From an uncultured Thermoleophilia bacterium (GTDB taxonomy: Bacteria; Actinomycetota; Thermoleophilia; Gaiellales; Gaiellaceae), in NCBI GenBank assembly GCA_963710975.1, contig CAVQCG010000001.1, forward strand, positions 279,062 through 343,061: DNA of 64,000 bases, in the 5' to 3' direction. Positions 23,476 through 51,982 of the stretch are shown here, piece after piece. The notes under the pieces are model-generated. The model was not told the origin of the DNA. It saw only the letters and a program-made list of their open reading frames with translations, and did not search any database. The first letter of the stretch is position 1; each line of letters starts with the position of its first letter. The position numbers and the translations under genes are program-made.

Positions 23476-25208
23476 TCACGCGAGAATCTCGACGACGCCG
23501 GTCGACCCGTTGACGCGCACGCGATCACCCGTCTTGATCCGCTCGGTGGCGATCGACGTCCCGACGACCGCCGGAATGCCGAACTCGCGCGACACGACGG
23601 CCGGATGCGCGGCAACTCCGCCCGCGTCCGTCACGAGCCCGGCGATCTTCGTGAAGAGCACGACCCATGCCGGGTTCGTCATCTGGCAGACGAGGATCTC
23701 GCCCTCCTTCACCTGATCGAACTCGTCGAGGGACGCGACCTGACGGGCGATCCCTTCGGCGATCCCGGGCGACGCGGCCAGCCCGGTGATCTGATCTTCG
23801 GACGACGGCGGCTCGCGCGAGAACTTCTCGGGAAAACCCCAGAGCGTGTAGTACGGGAAGTCGAGCTGGGACCTCGTCGCCGTGCCGACCCAGTCGGGGG
23901 GCGGATTGCGAATGCGTCCTCCCGCTCGTCCCGCCGGGACGACACGAGCGTGCGTGCATCGAATGCCGCGGGGCTGGCGGTGAGGAGGCGCAGCTCGTTG
24001 TAACGCAGGTAGAGCACGTCCTCCGGGTCGTCGATCACGCCCTCCTCGACGAGCCGCTTGCCGATCGCGATCGCGACCAGCCGGAGTCGCGCGTTCGTGC
24101 CCTGGTCGATGAAGAAGTGGTGGTCGGGCGTGAGCGGGTTCATCCGCAGCGAGAGGTCGAGTGCGGCCTGGAGCTTGTCGCGACCCTCACCAGCGGGAAC
24201 GTCGTCCATGAGATCGTGAACCGCGGACTCGAGATCCTCCTTCACGGCCGCCAGGGCGCCGGCGTAGTCGTAGTCGGACTCGAGGTACCCGCGAACAGCC
24301 TCGATGATCGGTGCCGGATTCTCGCGCCAGGTCGGGTAGACGAACTCGTGCGACCAGATCGCCTTCGCGCCGAATTCGGCTTGATAGGGCCCGAGCTTCT
24401 CCTCGACGAAGCTCCGCCCACGCTCTGACGCATCGAGCGCCTTGAGGACCGCCGCCGCGTTGTCGCCCGCCCGGAAGGCGTCGGCCAGCTCGGAGTCGGC
24501 CTTCACCTCCTCCTTCATCTGCCAGAGCGCCTCGATCGAGTCCCAGTTGCGGTCGTCGACCGAGCTCTGAAGGCGGCCGACGAGGCCGGGATCGACCTCG
24601 CCTTTCACTTCCTCGATCGTCGCGTTCAGCGCGATCGTGGCCGAGAACTGCGCAAAGTTGAGCATCCAGTGGATCTTCCAGTGGCGATCGTGGACGTCGA
24701 TCGCATCCTCGAAGAGGACTGCAAGCTCGACGAGGGTCGCGTCGTCCATGTCGTAGCCGTCGAGATAGGCGAAGTTCTGCTCGATCTCCGGCCGGAGGCG
24801 ATCGCGCCACCAGTCGAGGAAGTTGAGCGCGTAGTGAGGGAGCACGAAGCCGAGGTACGCGCCCATCGTGCCGGCATAGCCGGGATCGCGCGGGACTCGC
24901 GGCACGTAGCGGGCTTCGTACTCAGTTGCCTCGGCTCGCAGCGACTCGTCGGCGGGAATCGCAGCCATGTAGGCGTACCCGTTGATCTTCTTCATGATCC
25001 AGTCGCTCGCGAACGGAGTCGCGAAGCGCCGGAACATGTGGTCGCACGTGAGCCACCACCCGCCGATGTCGAAGAAGAGCGGCGAGACGGGATTCGGGCA
25101 GTGCAGGTCGTCGTAGATCCAGAGGAGCTCCTTCTCCCCCTCCGCCCATTCGATCGGGAACTCGTCCGAGCCGTAGAAGCTTCCGAGGATCTCCTCGCCA
25201 GCTGCCAT
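23476..25208 (-). CDS. PEP-utilising enzyme, central plus swivel-His domains (PpsA-like); apparent 1-nt deletion in the G6 run 23896-23901
   Basis: ATG 25208 (GAAGGGGG 7 nt upstream) opens MAAGEEILGSFYGSDEFPIEWAEGEKELLWIYDDLHCPNPV... After ..FAIRPP the sensible frame shifts to DWVGTATRSQLDFPYYTLWGFPEKFSREPPSSEDQITGLAASPGIAEGIARQVASLDEFDQVKEGEILVCQMTNPAW..DAGGVAAHPAVVSREFGIPAVVG (track ORF 23476..23712). Confidence 0.75.
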
Positions 25209-26056: not shown

Positions 26057-26497
26057 GTGGGGATCCTCACACGGGAACTCTGGCTCCGGCGTACACGCGA
26101 TGAGGTCTTCCCGTTCTTCGCGGACGCATTCAACCTCGAGGCGATCACGCCGCCGTGGCTGCGGTTTCGCGTCATCACGCCCGCCCCGATCGAGATGCGC
26201 CAGGGTACTCGGATCGACTACCGGCTCCGGTTTCGTGGCGTGCCGGTCCGCTGGCACAGTGAGATCACTGCATGGGATCCACCACACCGCTTCGTCGACG
26301 AGCAGCGACGTGGCCCCTACCGCCACTGGATCCACGAGCACACGTTCGAGACACACAAGGGCGGAACGCTCGTCCGCGATCACGTCGACTATGCCGTCGC
26401 GGGAGGTGCGTTTCTCGAGCGCGCGTTCGTCGCGCGCGACCTCGACCGGATCTTCGAGTTCCGCAGCGCGACGCTCCGCGAGCTTCTCGAGGGGTGA
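26057..26497 (+). CDS. SRPBCC-superfamily protein
   Basis: ..ELWLRRTRDEVFPFFADAFNLEAITPPWLRFRV...WHSEITAWDPPHRFVDEQRRGPYRHWIHEHTF.. Start uncertain (GTG 26057 or ATG 26027). Confidence 0.7.
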   Translation: MGILTRELWLRRTRDEVFPFFADAFNLEAITPPWLRFRVITPAPIEMRQGTRIDYRLRFRGVPVRWHSEITAWDPPHRFVDEQRRGPYRHWIHEHTFETHKGGTLVRDHVDYAVAGGAFLERAFVARDLDRIFEFRSATLRELLEG

Positions 26498-26566
26498 CCG
26501 GAGGGACTCGAACCCTCGACCACCGGGACCACAACCCGGGGCTCTACCAACTGAGCTACGGCCACC
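26493..26566 (-). tRNA. tRNA-His (anticodon GTG) with encoded G-1
   Basis: Reverse complement G-GTGGCCG-TA-GCTCAGTTGGTAGAGC-C-CCGGG-TTGTGGT-CCCGG-TGGTC-GAGGGTTCGAGTCCCTC-CGGTCAC-C folds as a cloverleaf. Confidence 0.9.
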
Positions 26567-26614: not shown

Positions 26615-26687
26615 GCGCCTGTAGCTCAGTGGACAGAGCGACGGCCTTCTAAGCCGTTGGTCGCAGGTTCGAATCCTGCCAGGCGCA
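26615..26687 (+). tRNA. tRNA-Arg (anticodon TCT)
   Basis: GCGCCTG-TA-GCTCAGTGGACAGAGC-G-ACGGC-CTTCTAA-GCCGT-TGGTC-GCAGGTTCGAATCCTGC-CAGGCGC-A. Confidence 0.92.
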
Positions 26688-26758
26688 TCAGGCGCAATCT
26701 CCGCAGCAGACTCAAGGACGTAGCAGCAGGCGGCCGAGGTGCCCAGGGATTCGGGTCA

Positions 26759-27547
26759 TCAGTCGCTGTCCGTCACGTAGCCGAAGGCACGCCACCCACC
26801 GTCGACGATCAGAGACGTGCCCGTGACGAAGCTCGAATCCTCGTCCGCTGCGAGAAAGAGCGCCGCCTTCGCGATCTCGTCAGGTCGGCCAAAGCGCTTC
26901 ATCGGCGTCCGCCTCAGATACGCCTCGGCGTTCACGAGCCCCTCCTCGATCGCACGGTCGAGCAGCTCGGTACGAGTGACGCCCGGACAGATCGCGTTCA
27001 CGCGCACGCCGTGCTCCGCCCACTCGATCGCAAGCACCTCTGTCATGCTTACGACGGCGGCCTTGGCAGCGTTGTACGCGAGCCGCATGGGAAACGCGAC
27101 CGTCGCGTTCATCGAGGAGATGTTCACGATTGCCCCGCCGCCCTTCTGGATCATCTGACGTCCGAAGGCCTGGCAGCAGAAGAACACGCCTGTCGCCATC
27201 ACGTCGAGGGATCGCCGCCAGGGCTCCTCGGGGAAATCGAGCGACGGGCCCATGAGCGCGACGCCGGCGTTGTTGACGAGCACGTCGCAGGGGCCGAGCT
27301 CGGCCTCGACCGCCGAAGCGGTTCTCACGACGGCCTCGCGGTCGGCGACGTCGCACAGGTAGGCACGCGCCTCCGTCCCGCGTGCCGCCAGGTCGTTTGC
27401 CGCCTCCTGCCCGGCCTGGCCGTCGAGCTCGAGGATCGCGATCCGGGCGCCATTCGCGGCGAACTCCTCGACGATCGCCCGTCCGATCCCCCGCGCACCG
27501 CCCGTGACGACGCAGACCTTTCCCTGCAGCTTCGTGTCCTGTCCCAT
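26759..27547 (-). CDS. SDR-family oxidoreductase
   Basis: 262 aa. VCVVTGGARGIGRAIV, NNAG, YNAAKAAV. Confidence 0.9.
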   Translation of the reverse strand: MGQDTKLQGKVCVVTGGARGIGRAIVEEFAANGARIAILELDGQAGQEAANDLAARGTEARAYLCDVADREAVVRTASAVEAELGPCDVLVNNAGVALMGPSLDFPEEPWRRSLDVMATGVFFCCQAFGRQMIQKGGGAIVNISSMNATVAFPMRLAYNAAKAAVVSMTEVLAIEWAEHGVRVNAICPGVTRTELLDRAIEEGLVNAEAYLRRTPMKRFGRPDEIAKAALFLAADEDSSFVTGTSLIVDGGWRAFGYVTDSD

Positions 27548-27557
27548 GCTCTCCGCT

Positions 27558-28103
27558 TTACGGCTTGTATTGCTGGACTATCCGGCGGACGGTATCGACG
27601 TGCACGGTGATCCATATTCCCGTCTCCAACGGCTCGAACAACTCGAGGCTGCTCTCGCCGTCGACGATCCCCGCCAGCTCGGAGACCGTGATCTGGGCCG
27701 GCGCCCAATCGCCCCCGTACTGACTGTAGGCCAGCGCCGTGACACGTGCGTTGTCCGGGACGAGGTAGGTCAGCAGCCGGTTGCCCTCCTCGATGACGTA
27801 GTTGTCATTCGGGACGGGCTGGCCCGGTTCGACCGCCCCGTCCTCGGCAGCGGCGGTGTTCGCCGTCACTCCCGAAAGAACCCAGGCTGGGTCGAACCGC
27901 ATCTCGTAATGGTCGTCCCTCGGGTGTCAGCGACTTGATGTGGCCGAACTGGACGTACAGGGCCGGTGGACCGAGGCCGGTCGCCGTGGCGGCGGCCGAT
28001 GTGACCGTCTTCGTCTCCGTAACCGTCTCGGTGCCGCCGCACCCCGCCGCGACGACGACACGAGAAGAAGGCCGGTGGTCAGACCGAAGACCCACCGCTG
28101 CAT
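27558..28103 (-). pseudogene. lipoprotein of unknown function, two apparent frameshifts
   Basis: Three frames are needed. MQRWVFGLTTGLLLV (ATG 28103) is followed by VVVAAGCGGTETVTE...YVQFGHIKSLTPE (lipobox), then DDHYEMRFDPAWVLSGVTAN...QQYKP (track ORF 27558..27902). Shifts lie near 28050-28064 and 27917-27919. Confidence 0.55.
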
Positions 28104-28178
28104 GCTCCGGAGTCTACGCCGCTCATCCAAGACCGCCGTTCAGTGCCGTGGATCGTCTGGGCATGCCGCTCGGGCGGG

Positions 28179-29589
28179 TCACGGGGAACCGGACGCGCCT
28201 TCGAGCCGGAGCGGGAGGCGGACTGTGAAGCGGGTGTCCCCCGGGCCCGACTCGACGGTCAACTCGCCGCGATGCTTGTTGACGATCCGCTGGGCGATGT
28301 CGAGACCGAGGCCGGTGCCCTTCCCGACCTCCTTGGTCGTGAAGAACGGCTCGAAGATGCGCGCCATGGCCTCTTCGGGGATCCCCGAGCCGTCGTCGGC
28401 GATCTCGACGACGACGCGATCGGCGTCGCGTCTCGAACTGAGCCTGATCGTCCCGCTCCCCTCGAGCGCATCGATCGCGTTGTCGATCAGGTTCGTCCAG
28501 AGCTGATTGAGCTCGGAGCCATAGCCCTCGATCCGGCGGTAGGCTCGGATCGAGATCCTGCTCGACGGTGATCGATCCCTGCTTCAGCTTGTGGCCGAGA
28601 ATCGTGAGGGTGCTGGCCAGGCCCTTGTTCACGTCGACGTCGCCCCTCGGCGCCTGATCCATGTAGGAGTACTGCTTCACCGCCTCGATCAGGGTCGAGA
28701 TCCTCGATGTCGCCTCGGACGCGGTCTCGATCAGGATCGGGGCCTGTGCGACGGCACTGAGCCAGCGGACGGCAGCCGGGAGCGTGGTCTCACCAACCTG
28801 TCCGACGAGCTCGTCGATCAAGGACTCGTCGACACCCGCAGGGATGAGCATCGCCGCCACCCAGGGCGCGTCCTCGACGCCGTGCGCCGTGAGCCGCGCC
28901 GCAAGCACCTCCTCACGATCGCTCGCCTCGAGCAGGTCGAGATCTCGCGCCGAAGCATGGTCGAGCCGCTGGCGCACCTCGAGCATTGCGTGCATCTGCT
29001 CGCGGGAGAGGCCGGCGAGCACGAGCTCGTCGAGCGCGGAGTCGTGCGCCCGAAGCACATCGCCGAGCTCTGTCACTGCGCGCCGGGCAGCGGCTGCGGG
29101 ATTGTTCAACTCGTGCGCCAGCCCTGCTGCGAGCCCCCCGAGGGCAACGAGCTTCTCGCGCTGGGCGGCGGCGGCGGCGGCGCCCTGAAAGCCCTGCATG
29201 AGCCGGGCGAAGACGCGGAAGACGACGCGCCGCACAGACTGCTCCTCGATCACGAGCCGGTGGAAGGCGTCGGGCTCGAGGCAGAACACCCGGGACGCCG
29301 TGACGGCCCGCGTCGAGGCGCCGTACGGCGTGTCGGCGAGGAGCGCGATGGCGCCGAGGTAGCCGCCGGCGACGTGCCGCTGCATGACCATCTCGCTGCC
29401 GCCCACCGATTTCGTCGACTCGAGCTCGCCCTCGAGCAGGAACATGAAGGACGTAGCGTGGTCGCCCTCGAGGAACAGCGTCTCACCCGGCGCGAAGCGT
29501 CGCTCGACCCCGGCCGCTTCGAGCTCGGTGAACCGTTCCTCGCCGACGTCGGCGAGCAGCTCGATGTCCCGGAGCGACTCGATGCTCAT
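28179..29589 (-). CDS. cyclic-nucleotide-binding-domain histidine kinase; apparent 1-nt insertion near 28534-28539
   Basis: ATG 29589 overlaps the upstream stop (ATGA). cNMP-like domain [25 protein letters not shown]..; H-box LAHELNNP. After ..DLDPSLP the N/G boxes ([47 protein letters not shown]) are in the frame of track ORF 28179..28367. Confidence 0.8.
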
Positions 29590-31220
29590 ATGCCGCGCAG
29601 GTACTGGTGGACGAACGCCACAGACATCGAGCCCTCCCCGACGGCCGACGCGACACGCTTTATCGATCCTTCGCGGACATCGCCTGCGACGAAGACGCCC
29701 GGAGCGCTCGTCTCGAGGAGGAAGGGCTCGCGCTCGAGCGGCCAGTCTGGCGTGATCGCGTCTCGACCGGAGAGCACGAACCCGGCGGGGGTGCGCGCGA
29801 CCGTGTCGCCCAGCCACTCGGTCTCCGGACGGGCGCCGATGAAGATGAACAGCCCCGCTGCGGGCAGCGTTTCGCGAACGCCTTGGCACTCGAGCGTGAC
29901 TGCCTCGAGGTGATCGTCACCCTGGGCCTCGACGACCCGGCTGTCGAGTCTGACCTCGATCGTCGGGATCGCCTCGATCTGGTCGATCAGGTACCGAGAC
30001 ATGCCGCGTTCCAGCGCGTCGGACCGGCACACGATCGTCACCCGGGCTGCAAATCGGCTGAAGAACACGGCAGCCTGGCCTGCCGAGTTGGCCCCGCCGA
30101 CGACGAACACGTCATGACCCGACATGGCCTGTGCCTCGCTCGCCGCGACTCCGTAGTAGACCCCCGCGCCCGTGAGCCTGTCGATTCCGGGCGCCTCGAG
30201 TCGCCGGTAGGAGACACCTGGCGCGATGACGACGGCGTGGCAGGCGACCTCCCCGCCGTCGCCGAGCCGGATGACGTGAAGCCGCTCGCGAGCCTCGAGC
30301 CCGACCGCCTGCCGGGTCGTCAGCATCTCGGCCCCGAGCCGCCGCGCCTGGGCCGTCGCGCGCCGCGCGAGGTCGCCGCCGCTGAGACCGACCGGGAAGC
30401 CGAGGTAGTTCTCTATCCGGGAGCTCTGGCCGGCCTGACCGCCGGGAGCCTCGTGCTCGACGAGCAGGGTTCGCAGACCCTCCGACGCGCCGTAGACGGC
30501 CGCGGCAAGACCCGCCGGGCCGCCTCCGACGATGGCGAGATCGTAGAGGTCGAGCTCCGCCTGCGTACGCAAACCGATGCGTTCGGCAACGGCCTGCGGG
30601 CTCGGGCTGGAGAGAACCGTGCCGTCGGGAAACGCGACGATCGGCAGCACCCCTGGCTCGGCGGCTTCCAGCATCGCTGCCGCATCCCGGTCCGACGCAT
30701 CGAGCCAGCGGTACGGCACGAGATTGCGGGCCAGGAAATCACGCAGGCGATGGGAGTCGGGAGACCAGCGATGGCCGACTACGGTCACGCCGGTGAACGG
30801 CTGGACCTGCGACGACTGCCAGGCTGCGAGCAGATCGTCGAGCACCGGATAGAGATGCTCGTCGGGTGGATCCCACGGCTTGAGGAGATAGTGATCGAGG
30901 CCGACATCGTTGATGGCCCGGATCGCCACGTCCGTGTCGGCATAGGCGGTCAGGAGCACCCGCTTGGCATCCGGCGCGATCTCTCGCAGGCGAGCAAGCA
31001 GCTCGACCCCGCTCATCTCGGGCATCCTCTGGTCGGAGATCACGAGCGCAACTTCCTCGCCCCGGCCGAGGATCCGCTCCACGAGGCCGAGGGCGCCGGC
31101 TCCCGACTCGGCCCGAAGGACCCGGTAGGCGTCGGCGTAGTGACGGAGGAGGTCGCGCTCGACCGAACGGGCCACGATCGGCTCGTCATCCACCGCGATC
31201 ACCACCGCCCGAGCCACCAC
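29586..31220 (-). CDS. response-regulator receiver fused to a thioredoxin-reductase-like FAD/NAD(P) oxidoreductase domain
   Basis: 544 aa. Receiver VIAVDDEP..LVISDQRMPEMSG..LLKPW; then DLAIVGGGPAGLAAA..VVGGANSAGQAAVF..GVFVAGDV. Start is GTG 31220 or 31217 (AGGAGG upstream). Confidence 0.85.
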   Translation of the reverse strand: MVARAVVIAVDDEPIVARSVERDLLRHYADAYRVLRAESGAGALGLVERILGRGEEVALVISDQRMPEMSGVELLARLREIAPDAKRVLLTAYADTDVAIRAINDVGLDHYLLKPWDPPDEHLYPVLDDLLAAWQSSQVQPFTGVTVVGHRWSPDSHRLRDFLARNLVPYRWLDASDRDAAAMLEAAEPGVLPIVAFPDGTVLSSPSPQAVAERIGLRTQAELDLYDLAIVGGGPAGLAAAVYGASEGLRTLLVEHEAPGGQAGQSSRIENYLGFPVGLSGGDLARRATAQARRLGAEMLTTRQAVGLEARERLHVIRLGDGGEVACHAVVIAPGVSYRRLEAPGIDRLTGAGVYYGVAASEAQAMSGHDVFVVGGANSAGQAAVFFSRFAARVTIVCRSDALERGMSRYLIDQIEAIPTIEVRLDSRVVEAQGDDHLEAVTLECQGVRETLPAAGLFIFIGARPETEWLGDTVARTPAGFVLSGRDAITPDWPLEREPFLLETSAPGVFVAGDVREGSIKRVASAVGEGSMSVAFVHQYLRGI

Positions 31221-31396
31221 GTCCTCCTATCCGAGCGCCGCCCCGCCCGGCCGCGGGCGCGCACACTCAGCCTAGATCGAACCACCGCCCGCGCGTGGGC
31301 CTTGTGGGCGCCGAGGGAGTGATCAGCAGTTCTTGGCGTGGCCTGCAGCCATGTGGCCCGGGTACCGACGCGGCCGGCTACGGCGGGGGGTACCGC

Positions 31397-32209
31397 TCAC
31401 ACAGCGACCGTCACGCGCAGGAACGTTGCGGGAATGGAGGTGGCCTCCTTGCTCCCACTTGCGTTCTGGCCGTTGAAGAGGGCTTCCAGCTCGGCCTGCA
31501 GCTCGGCCTCGCGGCCGTTGGCGCCAGCGGCTGCGAAGGCGTTCATGGTCGGCCCGTAGTACGTCCTGAACTCCGTCACGAACTCCGACGGCGCGCCCGG
31601 GAAGTTGAACCAATACGTGTCCCGCTCGCACGAGATCCGCTCTTCCGGCACGCCCGCGCTCGCGAAGCGGTCGATCACGTTCTCCTCGATCCCCCACGTC
31701 ATCGGGCTGACGAATCCTTCCGGAGGCGGCGGCGAGTAGGCGGCGCTGATTCTCAGGATCTGGGCGACGAGCGTCGGGTCGTTGGGGATCCAGTTGCCCA
31801 TGACGATCCGACCGCCGGGCCGCGTCACGCGGACCATCTCCTTGGCCACGTCGAATGGCTTCGGAGCGAACATCGCTCCGAAGATGCTGACCACGAGGTC
31901 GAAGCTGTCGTCCTCGAGCTCGTTCAGATCGGACGCATCGCCTTCCTGGAACCTGCAGTTGGTGAGGCCGAGACTCTGCGCCCGTGCGTTGCCGGCCTCG
32001 ACAAGGTTCCTGGCGATGTCGACACCCAGCACATTCGCCCCGAGCTTCGCCGCCGGCAGCGCCGTGGTCCCGTCGCCGCAGCCGAGGTCAAGAACGTCCA
32101 GCCCCGCTGCGATTCCCAGTCCGTCGACGAGCGTCTCGCCACTCTCTCTCATGCTCGCAGCGATGCGAGTGAAATCGCCCTTTTCCCAGAGTTCCTTGTT
32201 CGGATTCAT
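31397..32209 (-). CDS. class I SAM-dependent methyltransferase
   Basis: From MNPNKELWEKGDF..; motif I VLDLGCGDGT; ..RPGGRIVM.. Confidence 0.8.
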   Translation of the reverse strand: MNPNKELWEKGDFTRIAASMRESGETLVDGLGIAAGLDVLDLGCGDGTTALPAAKLGANVLGVDIARNLVEAGNARAQSLGLTNCRFQEGDASDLNELEDDSFDLVVSIFGAMFAPKPFDVAKEMVRVTRPGGRIVMGNWIPNDPTLVAQILRISAAYSPPPPEGFVSPMTWGIEENVIDRFASAGVPEERISCERDTYWFNFPGAPSEFVTEFRTYYGPTMNAFAAAGANGREAELQAELEALFNGQNASGSKEATSIPATFLRVTVAV

Positions 32210-32244
32210 CGGGCTTGGCTCCTCTCGTGCTGTCCTCGGCGACT

Positions 32245-32280
32245 CATCGTTTCGGTTGCTGGGAAGCAACCGAAACGATG
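32245..32280. other. perfect 16-bp stem / GGGA tetraloop hairpin
   Basis: CATCGTTTCGGTTGCT-GGGA-AGCAACCGAAACGATG, just inside the island next to the distal tRNA repeat. Confidence 0.5.
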
Positions 32281-32315
32281 CCAGAGAACCTTAAGCGATC
32301 AGATCGCCCGGCCTG

Positions 32316-32362
32316 CCTTCTGAGCCGTTGGTCGCAGGTTCGAATCCTGCCAGGCGCATCAG
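32316..32362 (+). repeat. partial tRNA-Arg(TCT) copy (att-like direct repeat)
   Basis: CCTTCTgAGCCGTTGGTCGCAGGTTCGAATCCTGCCAGGCGCATCAG equals 26645-26691 apart from one A>G change. Confidence 0.85.
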
Positions 32363-32586
32363 CCGCTGGAGGAAGCGGTCGGCGCGAGTGAGTGAACGTT
32401 GATCGCCTCGGTACCCATTCCGCCCTCCCGCAGGTCGAACTCGACACGCTGTCCCTTGCTCAACATTGCCGTCGAATCACCCACGACGTTCCTCTGGTGC
32501 ACCCAGACGTCTTCCCCGATCGCATCGGGAGCAATGAACCCATACCCGCTCGTCGTGTTGAACGACTTGACGATGCCGCTTGCCAT
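32359..32586 (-). CDS. cold-shock-domain protein
   Basis: MASGIVKSFNTTSGYGFIAPDAIGEDVWVHQRNV...GQRVEFDLREG.. (RNP1-like GYGFI). The stop lies inside the tRNA repeat. Confidence 0.85.
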   Translation of the reverse strand: MASGIVKSFNTTSGYGFIAPDAIGEDVWVHQRNVVGDSTAMLSKGQRVEFDLREGGMGTEAINVHSLAPTASSSG

Positions 32587-33901: not shown

Positions 33902-34267
33902 CTAGTCGCTCTTCCTGCCGCGGTCGGTCAGGTCGAGAACGCCTCGCAGGACCATGTTCACGGCCCAGATGATGATCGTGGCCGCGACCGCCGCTCCGAA
34001 GCTCGAGATCGAAAACCCTGCGACCAGCCAGCTCGTGATGTAGAGCATGAGCAGGTTGATGAAGAAGAGCGCGATTCCGACCGTCAGGAAGATCAGCGGA
34101 AGCGAGAAGAGCTTGACGATTGGCTTGACGAGAGTGTTGACGACTCCGAAGACTGCGCCCGCGATCAGGTAGACGCCGAATCGGTCGTCGACGTGGATGC
34201 CGCTGACGACGAGAGTGGCGACGAAGAACGCGACGACGTTGATCGCCCAGCTGAGAAGGAGCCTCAT
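33902..34267 (-). CDS. phage-holin-family-IV-like (PF04020-type) membrane protein
   Basis: From MRLLLSWAINVVAFFVATLVVSGIHV..FGVVNTLVKPIVKLFSLPLIFLTVGIALFFINLLMLYITSWLVAGF.. Confidence 0.8.
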   Translation of the reverse strand: MRLLLSWAINVVAFFVATLVVSGIHVDDRFGVYLIAGAVFGVVNTLVKPIVKLFSLPLIFLTVGIALFFINLLMLYITSWLVAGFSISSFGAAVAATIIIWAVNMVLRGVLDLTDRGRKSD

Positions 34268-34405
34268 CACCGACGTGACCCTAGCCGAGGCGTCCAACGA
34301 CCTTCAGCGTTCCCCCTGACAGCCGATCCGTGTTTCCCCCGATTCGACACCACGTCCCGGCACGCACGCTGGAGGGACACCAGACGTATCCCAGGAGGTG
34401 CCAGC

Positions 34406-40815: not shown

Positions 40816-40860
40816 AGCGGGCGACGGGACTCGAACCCGCGACGCTCAGCTTGGAAGGCT
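40816..40860 (-). repeat. partial tRNA-Gly(TCC) copy (att-like direct repeat)
   Basis: 45 nt equal 42027-42071 with one mismatch. The repeat covers the 3' end through the anticodon loop. Confidence 0.85.
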
Positions 40861-41089
40861 ACTCCCCACGGTGCGACGTTCGGCAGCAAACGACGACGAC
40901 CGTGTATAGCCATGCGGGTTTGCGGCGCACTAACACCCCGCGACACCGCATCCCTCCACGGGCGTTTTCAGAGTCGTTTTGGCCATACGTGGCCACGGGA
41001 CCCCGCTGGTGAGAGGCCCGCTGGCACCCGGCAAGGGCGCGGGCAACGAGCCGACAGCCACGACGAACGATGCGGAGCCTCGAAGCCCC

Positions 41090-41590
41090 TCAGGCGAGCA
41101 GCGGGCAGATAGCGCTCGGGCCATCGTCGCCGAAGTTGCCGTGCTGCTCGAACGAGAGCACGGTTGAAGCGGGATCGTCTGGGTCGCCGCTGAACAGAAT
41201 CTTCCGCAAGCCAATCTCGTAGTAGACACCCTGCACCTTGATATGAATGCCAGTCGAGAGCAGGAAGACCGTGCCGTCGGCGTTGATACTGAACTTGTCC
41301 AGACCACGGTCCGCGCTCAAGATGGTCTTCCCGTTGGCCGGATTCGTCACGGTGTCCACGAGGCTCGGGTTCTGGCTCACCTGGCGAACGCTTCCGTCCC
41401 GGTTGAAATACACCGCGACACGAAACTTGCCGGTCGAGTGCACAGTGATCGGGAACGAACAGAAGTCACCAGCAGGAATTGTCTCACTGTCGTCTACTTT
41501 GAAAACACTGACATCCGGCGGACTGGCGTAGGCGGGAACGGCCACCACCGCGGCCACGACAAACGCAGCGAGAAGGAAGAGGACACGCAT
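41090..41590 (-). CDS. secreted hypothetical protein
   Basis: 166 aa. Signal peptide MRVLFLLAAFVVAAVVAVPAYA; no domain recognised. Visibly more A/T than its surroundings. Confidence 0.65.
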   Translation of the reverse strand: MRVLFLLAAFVVAAVVAVPAYASPPDVSVFKVDDSETIPAGDFCSFPITVHSTGKFRVAVYFNRDGSVRQVSQNPSLVDTVTNPANGKTILSADRGLDKFSINADGTVFLLSTGIHIKVQGVYYEIGLRKILFSGDPDDPASTVLSFEQHGNFGDDGPSAICPLLA

Positions 41591-41646
41591 GTGGCGATTC
41601 TTTCAAGCGCCAGGCGTGTCTGTCCACTGGACCAACGGGGAGTTCA

Positions 41647-41939
41647 GTGCCGCCGCCGAGACACGCGGCCCCTCACGGCGGCTACCTCAACCTCCACAAC
41701 TTCCGCCGCCGCGAGTGGTTCCCCCCATCGAAGCGGCGGGAATCCCCCGCCGGCGAATCTACGACCTCCGACACACCTTCGCGTCGAACGCCCTCGCGGC
41801 CGGCGTCACGTCAAGCGTGCTCGCCCACTACTTCGGTTCGAGCGAGCTAATGATCGACCGAACCTACTCGCACCTTGTGCGCGGCTCGGACGATTTTCTC
41901 CGTGACCGCTTGAACGCCTGGACGGCAGAGCAGACTTAG
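41647..41939 (+). pseudogene. tyrosine recombinase/integrase, C-terminal fragment with a frameshift at the C6 run near 41721-41726
   Basis: GGYLNLHNFRRREWFP (frame of ORF 41647..) is followed by PIEAAGIPRRRIYDLRHTFASNALAAGVTSSVLAHYFGSSELMIDRTYSHL (frame of ORF 41589..). This is the R..HxxR..Y catalytic region only; the N-terminal two thirds are absent. Confidence 0.75.
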
Positions 41940-42026
41940 GGTTTTGGCCATGATATGGCCACGGGAGAGGAGCACTCGTGACGTCTCAAAGTAGAAAACC
42001 CCGCTCTGAGCAGGGCTTTCGTTGAA

Positions 42027-42100
42027 AGCGGGCGACGGGACTCGAACCCGCGACCCTCAGCTTGGAAGGCTGACGCTCTAGCCAACTGAGCTACGCCCGC
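42027..42100 (-). tRNA. tRNA-Gly (anticodon TCC)
   Basis: Reverse complement GCGGGCG-TA-GCTCAGTTGGCTAGAGC-G-TCAGC-CTTCCAA-GCTGA-GGGTC-GCGGGTTCGAGTCCCGT-CGCCCGC-T. Confidence 0.92.
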
Positions 42101-49914: not shown

Positions 49915-51729
<1,815 letters not shown>

Positions 51730-51737
51730 CAAGGCGC

Positions 51738-51982
51738 GAAGCGACGCGCAGCGGACGGCGAAGCCGGCCGCGAAGGCTCACCGAGCCCGGCAGGGATCGG
51801 TACAGGAGCGAAGCGACGCGCAGCGGACGGCGAAGCCGGCCGCGAAGGCTCACCGAGCCCGGCAGGGCGGTACAGGAGCGAAGGCGGGGCGCGGTCGGGG
51901 GCTTGCTGGATACGCCGGCTTCGCCGGCTGGACTTCGCGGCCGGCTTCGCCGTCCGCTGCGCGTCGCGTCGCTCCTTGCGCG
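51738..51982. repeat. compound GC-rich repeat: two 72-nt direct units plus one inverted unit of the same family as 62439-62775
   Basis: Units at 51738-51809 and 51810-51879 (the second has a 2-nt deletion). The inverted unit GATACGCCGGCTTCGCCGGCTG... starts near 51909. GCGACGCGCAGCGGACGGCGAAGCCGGCCGCGAAG (51741-51775 and 51813-51847) is the exact reverse complement of 51933-51967. Confidence 0.8.

Follow-up and report, generated by a model that had tools for sequence, protein, structure and literature searches.

A tRNA-Arg(TCT)-flanked genomic island lacking an integrase, probably an immobilised remnant with mosaic cargo, in an uncultured Thermoleophilia bacterium

The tRNA-Arg(TCT) locus

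Contig CAVQCG010000001.1 of assembly GCA_963710975.1, from an uncultured Thermoleophilia bacterium of the Gaiellaceae, carries an intact tRNA-Arg(TCT) gene whose 3′ end recurs 5.7 kb downstream, at the edge of a cold-shock-domain gene (csp). Both copies lie in the 64,000-nucleotide stretch from position 279,062 to 343,061 of that contig, referred to here as the window and used for all coordinates below. Five genes, all on the minus strand, occupy the interval between the copies; they encode a short-chain dehydrogenase/reductase (SDR), a lipoprotein, a cyclic nucleotide monophosphate (cNMP)-binding histidine kinase, a receiver domain fused to a thioredoxin-reductase (TrxR)-like flavoprotein (hereafter the regulator), and an S-adenosylmethionine (SAM) methyltransferase (Table 1). 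The assembly, denoted G000, is a metagenome-assembled genome (MAG) of eight contigs and 3.75 Mb, estimated to be 92.6% complete, with the window on its contig C1; 151 genomes of the family were compared (G-numbers, G001 being the congener), along with individual loci and contigs (L-numbers). Our preferred interpretation, to which we assign a probability of about 0.75, is that the interval 26688–32314 is the decayed and immobilised remnant of an integrative element that has lost its integrase, has become fixed and now holds a cargo of mosaic origin.

A repeat search aligned the two copies in direct orientation over 52 nt with 96% identity (two mismatches), at a distance of 5671 nt from start to start. 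Reading of the letters gives a match of 48 nt (26644–26691 and 32315–32362), which confirms the direct repeat reported in the first-pass annotation and lengthens it from 47 nt; the sole difference is the A>G change recorded there, located at 26651/32322, which is position 37 of the tRNA, in the anticodon loop. The repeat starts 2 nt ahead of that loop and extends 4 nt (TCAG) beyond the tRNA end, after which xCGC follows. Its 29-nt core is present twice in the window against an expectation of 0.00 from 100 shuffles, and elsewhere in the genome only once, at the 3′ end of a genuine tRNA-Arg(CCG) on a different contig. Between the distal copy and the AI-2E transporter gene there are no more tRNA fragments of the kind expected from tandem islands. 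Under the Islander principle, a tRNA-integrated island consists of a regenerated tRNA and a displaced 3′ fragment in direct orientation (PMC4383910). At this locus the intact tRNA and the fragment share one replicon, and the fragment begins at one of the sublocations known for such islands, the anticodon loop or the T-stem.

Alternatively, no integration would be involved, and the distal copy would be left over from a second tRNA-Arg gene that arose by duplication, or be an artefact of assembly; tRNA genes do duplicate, and the sequence comes from a metagenome-assembled genome with many consensus indels. However, the Rfam tRNA model has no match at the distal copy at E ≤ 1, and the 22 nt upstream of it bear no resemblance to the 5′ half of the tRNA (7/22 positions match by manual count), so the copy is a fragment and not a decayed whole tRNA; a decayed second tRNA gene, which the first-pass annotation had itself named as a possible refutation, was thus not borne out. 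The same structure is present in an independent assembly from another sample, that of the conspecific strain L247 (ERZ25039492 contig_1949), which is 97.5–97.8% identical over 20.8 kb with the same gene order. The start of the repeat, 2 nt before the loop, is also next to the loop-start register observed in four other genera, two of them with integrase stumps (see below). We regard this explanation as essentially refuted.

Table 1. Positions of the tRNA genes, repeat copies and cargo genes at the tRNA-Arg(TCT) locus
Feature	Position	Strand	Remarks
tRNA-His(GTG)	26491–26565	-	ARAGORN and Rfam; conserved left neighbour of tRNA-Arg
tRNA-Arg(TCT), intact; 3′ part is putative attL	26615–26687	+	ARAGORN and Rfam
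Repeat copy, putative attL	26644–26695	+	Anticodon stem/loop to tRNA 3′ end, plus TCAG and xCGC
Repeat copy, putative attR; displaced 3′ fragment of tRNA-Arg(TCT), G replacing A37	32315–32366	+	
Short-chain dehydrogenase/reductase (SDR), 262 aa	26759–27547	-	
Lipoprotein, lipobox VAAGC, three frames here	27558–28103	-	Intact, 181 aa, in L247
cNMP-binding histidine kinase	28179–29589	-	Intact, 469 aa with HATPase_c, in L247
Receiver domain fused to TrxR-like flavoprotein (regulator), 544 aa, intact here	29586–31220	-	Conserved pair with kinase
Class I SAM methyltransferase, 270 aa	31397–32209	-	Cassette homology limits ~31321–32233
72-nt segment with near-perfect hairpin	32227–32298		Upstream of methyltransferase
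Cold-shock-domain gene (csp), native right flank	32359–32586	-	Stop codon abuts tRNA fragment

Gene content and reading frames

No mobility gene was revealed when every island product was scanned against Pfam and NCBIfam. There is no integrase accompanied by a relaxase, an FtsK-like translocase or a replication module, as would be expected of an integrative and conjugative element (ICE), an actinomycete ICE (AICE) or an integrative and mobilizable element (IME), and no phage structural, lysis or regulatory gene of the kind that marks a prophage remnant; a Phage_holin_4_2 match at 33902–34297 falls outside the island. Codon-usage Viterbi segmentation filled the interval with coding sequence. 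The gaps measure only 72–236 nt, so there is no room for an integrase, an excisionase or a further gene. The scans, the segmentation and tblastx searches (below) all uphold the earlier observation that the repeats enclose no integrase, excisionase, phage or transfer gene. The gene content had also been described correctly as five minus-strand genes with the lipoprotein split over three frames, while a frameshift in the kinase near 28555 had been overlooked: one extra base there, relative to the orthologues in L166, G137 and G080, throws the HATPase half out of frame.

We registered 503 frameshift-like transitions in the 3.75 Mb of G000, or 13.4 per 100 kb, by the same segmentation, several of them in the flanks of the island; examples from the window are those at 23896 (a phosphoenolpyruvate-utilising enzyme), 28555 (the kinase) and 59482. 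Within the island, two fall in the lipoprotein and one in the kinase. Both genes are intact in L247, in which the regulator and the methyltransferase are split instead. The island frameshifts are most likely long-read consensus errors because they are a genome-wide phenomenon and are not common to the sister strain; contig names, and the origin of related records, are indicative of metagenomes assembled from long reads. Island decay as the cause of the frameshifts was rejected on the same grounds, and the case cautions against taking frameshifts in MAGs built from long reads as pseudogenisation.

The stop codon of the SDR gene is 71 nt from the tRNA end, at the place that an integrase occupies in relatives. 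The SDR is 98% identical in L247; the next best match, at 85%, has a different context. No family match was found for the lipoprotein. By eye, the TrxR-like half of the regulator has VAASEA in place of the CxxC redox pair of thioredoxin reductases, and many family members carry a cNMP-binding domain instead of the receiver (their matches span residues ~140–542 only). The hairpin upstream of the methyltransferase has a stem of ~15 bp, CATCGTTTCGGTTGC...GCAACCGAAACGATG; the 72-nt segment that contains it is missing from L247, and other species have a shorter hairpin of 7 bp at the equivalent position. An Rfam scan of the 0.8-kb gap upstream of csp gave no non-coding RNA match, and dispersed repeats were not found at the module junctions.

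tRNA-Arg(TCT) as a target in related genera

The tRNA-Arg(TCT) gene is 100% identical in G001, G012, L164 and L247. A query covering both genes retrieved its divergent pair with tRNA-His in full length from G001 and from nine further genera; the remaining relatives gave single-tRNA matches. Downstream of this tRNA, four other genera (G012, G009, G021 and G011) have partial tRNA-Arg(TCT) copies in direct orientation, which begin in or at the anticodon loop and end at position 73. The copy in G012 is 42 nt long, 100% identical and 14.5 kb off; that in G009 comprises 44 nt and is 0.7 kb off; and G021 has two, at 17–18 kb. An integrase catalytic stump (PF00589, E = 1.2e-8) adjoins the tRNA in the G012 island and reads towards it, followed by a resolvase, a DUF5681 protein and cargo. 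A tyrosine-integrase C-terminal stump is the sole content between attL and attR in G009.

The copies and stumps establish tRNA-Arg(TCT) as a family-wide target of tyrosine integrases. Because loop-register tRNA copies occur in four genera, two of them with integrase stumps, the repeat in the window is well supported as an attL/attR pair; the tyrosine-integrase footprint at the anticodon loop that the first-pass annotation had proposed draws its support from these same copies and stumps. The 14.5-kb island with its integrase stump, the 0.7-kb remnant and the 5.7-kb island without an integrase make up a decay series in one family.

The 14.5-kb island of G012 (L035; G012:C3:669000-688999) also encodes a stand-alone cNMP-binding protein beside a flavin oxidoreductase, a CoA-binding/FHA/aminotransferase fusion, a Clp protease and a LuxR regulator. 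The theme of a cNMP-binding protein plus a flavoprotein recurs there via unrelated genes.

Integrase fragments in the assembly

The PF00589 profile has no match in the island or in the whole window at E ≤ 0.01, and tblastx with the G012 and G009 integrase stumps found nothing in the island. A genome-wide search for integrases, suggested in the first-pass annotation, yielded fragments only: over the whole assembly PF00589 has no intact match and five fragmentary ones, the best at 27.8 bits. Integrase fragments in G000 include a multiply broken integrase on C3 and stumps beside ssrA and tRNA-Thr. The window itself contains a second decayed island, a 1.2-kb repeat-bounded remnant at 40816–42100 beside tRNA-Gly(TCC); the C-terminus of an open reading frame there (41532–41939, plus strand) matches box II of the G012 integrase (35% over 40 aa, pairwise E = 1e-5) and scores under the reporting level of Pfam. 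The PF00589 search identified no partner element for the island in the assembly. An XerC/XerD-like recombinase is likewise absent from the G000 assembly, though relatives have the pair.

The island in the sister strain

L247 carries the same island, also without an integrase. The anticodon-loop stretch, CTTCTAA in the tRNA, reads CTTCTGA in the attR of the window and CTTCCAA in that of L247, which are independent single substitutions. Since the two attR copies differ from the tRNA at different positions, that of the common ancestor was perfect, and the repeat is drifting and not maintained; attR has drifted at about the genome-wide rate since that ancestor, and nothing suggests maintenance. 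The first-pass annotation had left two alternatives, an island that lost its recombinase and is fixed or one that is mobilised in trans. Three lines of evidence favour the former: i) the assembly holds integrase fragments only, ii) the sister island has no integrase, and iii) the attR substitutions differ between the strains.

The second alternative would make the island a still-functional cis-mobilizable element (CIME), having lost its own integrase while attL and attR remain usable, and being moved by a related tRNA-Arg element or by an integrase acting in trans. Structurally the definition fits, as the interval is bounded by att sites and devoid of genes for integration or transfer (PMC6323972). 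Elements with integrases for the tRNA-Arg(TCT) site exist or existed in the family, and parts of the cargo were recently exchanged between species (see below). Against these points stand the lack of an intact tyrosine integrase in the assembly and the state of attR: its loop, the presumed crossover region, is substituted in both strains at different positions, which looks like neutral drift, and attR is cut to 24 nt in another species and gone in L166. No excised or empty form was found, reads not having been examined. Continued mobility of this kind strikes us as unlikely.

Cargo of separate histories

The methyltransferase cassette is 95–98% identical at the nucleotide level in other species, whose flanks are only 77–86% identical and whose adjacent cargo differs. 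In L162–L165, from other species, the methyltransferase (95% identical in DNA) is flanked on one side by a 24-nt tRNA remnant and on the other by a different cargo of 9.2 kb, which holds a xanthine-dehydrogenase-like cluster, a cyclase and an alcohol dehydrogenase; in L164 this cargo has an intact tRNA-Arg at its other end. In L166 the methyltransferase is of the L164 type (98%) and the regulator and kinase are of the window type (94%); its tRNA remnant is gone. Third-position identity in conserved codons reaches 0.95 in the methyltransferase versus 0.59 and 0.65 in the flanking genes, so the cassette was presumably exchanged between species long after their split. Relatives of the regulator are present in 66 of the 151 family genomes, with the kinase beside the regulator in all eight loci examined, and G000 has a paralogous regulator/kinase pair on C4. 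The methyltransferase end thus has a history separate from that of the kinase/regulator block, and the island does not form a single coherent unit. Genus g71 was considered as a recent donor of the regulator and kinase (85% and 75% amino-acid identity) and rejected, with a third-position identity of 0.64 and unrelated neighbours.

Such mosaicism raises the question of whether the repeat is an old and irrelevant relic, the content arriving and turning over purely by interspecies homologous recombination, with the conserved tRNA genes and the methyltransferase as anchors, as in a replacement or additive flexible genomic island. Homology breaks exactly at the edges of the methyltransferase cassette (~31321 and ~32233–32300), L166 has the makeup of a recombinant, the tRNA-Arg is 100% identical across species, and identity at synonymous sites is 0.95 within the methyltransferase but 0.59 in the flank. 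Yet this explanation complements that of a decayed integrative element, as an original integration is still needed to make the tRNA fragment. A very old relic would also be expected to be less intact than the attR of the window, unless it is kept tRNA-like by gene conversion, and the unrelated sequence to the right of the fragment in different species fits independent integrations better than it does recombination between common anchors. Taken as a full account of the locus, we consider it quite improbable.

Flanks and the empty site

An empty site, with csp directly after the tRNA, had been proposed as a check and was looked for in relatives. Island and flank proteins were compared by tblastn with the tRNA-Arg loci of 10 relatives, and no island gene turned up there; scanning metagenomes with the regulator yielded no match exceeding 58% identity; and exact look-ups of csp and of a left-flank protein returned one contig only, that of the sister strain. 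A family-wide DNA search with the right flank located csp–PRC in G001, not beside the tRNA: it is on another contig, at the far end of another insert, by a block syntenic with C3 of G000, and no tRNA fragment is present at that site. In G001, a toxin–antitoxin pair, an HD-GYP/LuxR regulator and a hydrolase follow tRNA-Arg. G000 and G001 agree in where csp stops and in how long its tail is, so the repeat did not give rise to the csp stop codon. To the right of the tRNA fragment, different species carry unrelated sequence, with csp here and a Big_9 gene in the contigs of other species.

A model for the island

Taken together, a model for the island emerges in which a tyrosine integrase would have recombined the attP of an element with the 3′ half of tRNA-Arg(TCT), the crossover falling in or near the anticodon loop. 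Integration would have regenerated the tRNA (attL) and displaced the original 3′ fragment (attR) against its native neighbour csp. The recombination module, which in relatives directly adjoins the tRNA, would later have been deleted, and the island may now be fixed and vertically inherited in the chromosome of the species, with no means of movement of its own. Its cargo would be a patchwork of a recently exchanged methyltransferase cassette at the attR end, a second, paralogous kinase/regulator pair, the SDR and the lipoprotein; the part between the tRNA and the methyltransferase was probably swapped by homologous recombination, with both conserved sequences serving as anchors.

Several points weigh against this model. 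The empty site was found nowhere, and the insertion is one that we infer rather than one seen in a genome. No integrase remnant lies inside the island, the link to tyrosine integrases resting on other genera, and an integrase may sit in the missing part of a 92.6%-complete assembly that lacks even XerC/XerD. The comparison of composition that the first-pass annotation had recommended gave no signal: the island genes are host-typical in GC, GC3 and codon use (percentiles 34–94), which fits a donor of similar composition or a long residence and offers no positive indication of foreign origin. The differing right flanks make one ancestral integration and several independent ones indistinguishable, and the near-perfect attR (1/48 differs) sits oddly with a very old event.

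Resemblance to known elements

Within the anticodon-centred attP class of Islander tDNA islands, the arrangement is the same as here, an intact tRNA and a direct 3′ fragment reaching slightly past the 3′ end. Islander requires an integrase gene inside the candidate, so the island, having none, would be filtered out. CIMEs are elements that have lost their integration and transfer genes and kept attL and attR, an example being a streptococcal CIME mobilized in cis by ICESt3 (ICEberg 2.0, PMC6323972). The island is alike in having no integration or transfer genes of its own and in keeping attL and attR on both sides (48 nt, the one mismatch in the anticodon loop). It differs from the streptococcal CIMEs in that it has no known partner element and an attR that is drifting in the loop; the hosts are Firmicutes there and a high-GC uncultured actinomycete lineage here. 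The att site of ICESt3 is the 3′ end of a protein-coding gene, fda, and that of the island is a tRNA gene.

Actinomycete elements of the pSAM2 type integrate in the 3′ end of tRNA genes and have an integrase that reads towards attP. An integrase stump beside the tRNA and reading towards it is likewise seen in G012, in G009 and at the tRNA-Gly of the window, but the island itself has no integrase, excisionase, replication or transfer gene, and membership of this type is not claimable. Additive and replacement flexible genomic islands occur beside tRNA genes in Alteromonas and other marine bacteria. They resemble the present locus in being conserved sites with species-specific cargo between conserved anchors and with recombinant combinations; they differ in that a clear att-type tRNA fragment marks one boundary here, where only a handful of genomes was available. 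The island is a decayed, CIME-like structure in a flexible hotspot, a known, common and well-understood kind of genomic scar, and its main value lies in annotation, as an illustration of how a tRNA-flanked island looks after integrase loss. The mosaic identities also make the tRNA-Arg(TCT) locus usable for tracing gene flow among these uncultured soil actinomycetes.

The methyltransferase and minor observations

Of everything at the locus, only the methyltransferase might open up something new, as its conservation goes far beyond that predicted by its taxonomic spread. Whether there is a family of tRNA-Arg(TCT) islands with a methyltransferase at the attR end that still moves between species with no recombinase of its own is a tentative and, in our view, doubtful proposition; such movement could use an integrase in trans, or recombination anchored in the tRNA and the methyltransferase. 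The methyltransferase is an uncharacterised enzyme present in at least eight phyla with 75–86% amino-acid identity; if the proposition holds, it would be a promiscuously transferred gene carried on such islands, perhaps for detoxification.

Homologues of the methyltransferase with 75–86% amino-acid identity are found in MAGs labelled Actinomycetota, Alpha- and Betaproteobacteria, Acidobacteriota and Nitrospirota, as well as Chloroflexota, Verrucomicrobiota, Planctomycetota and Binatia (loci L167–L246). Thousands of metagenome proteins match at ~85%, and phyla are mixed in the methyltransferase tree. The nearest solved structure is MitM, at 72 bits only. At ~10% of the methyltransferase loci, the neighbours include an ArsR–rhodanese fusion, an ArsM-like methyltransferase and a metallo-beta-lactamase (MBL)-fold protein. 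The homologues in other phyla are often beside tRNA genes or tRNA fragments: L195 has a tRNA-Met and two more 22-nt partial copies near the homologue, L184 and L214 have a tRNA-Ala, and L244, from an Acidobacteriota MAG, has a 44-nt tRNA-Arg-like fragment.

The G001 sequence just 3′ of tRNA-Arg matches dozens of sites in G000, which drew attention to a dispersed repeat of 30–80 nt resembling repetitive extragenic palindromic (REP) elements; it is present in the window at ~51729–51980 (G000 C1:330790-331041) and at many other sites of the genome.

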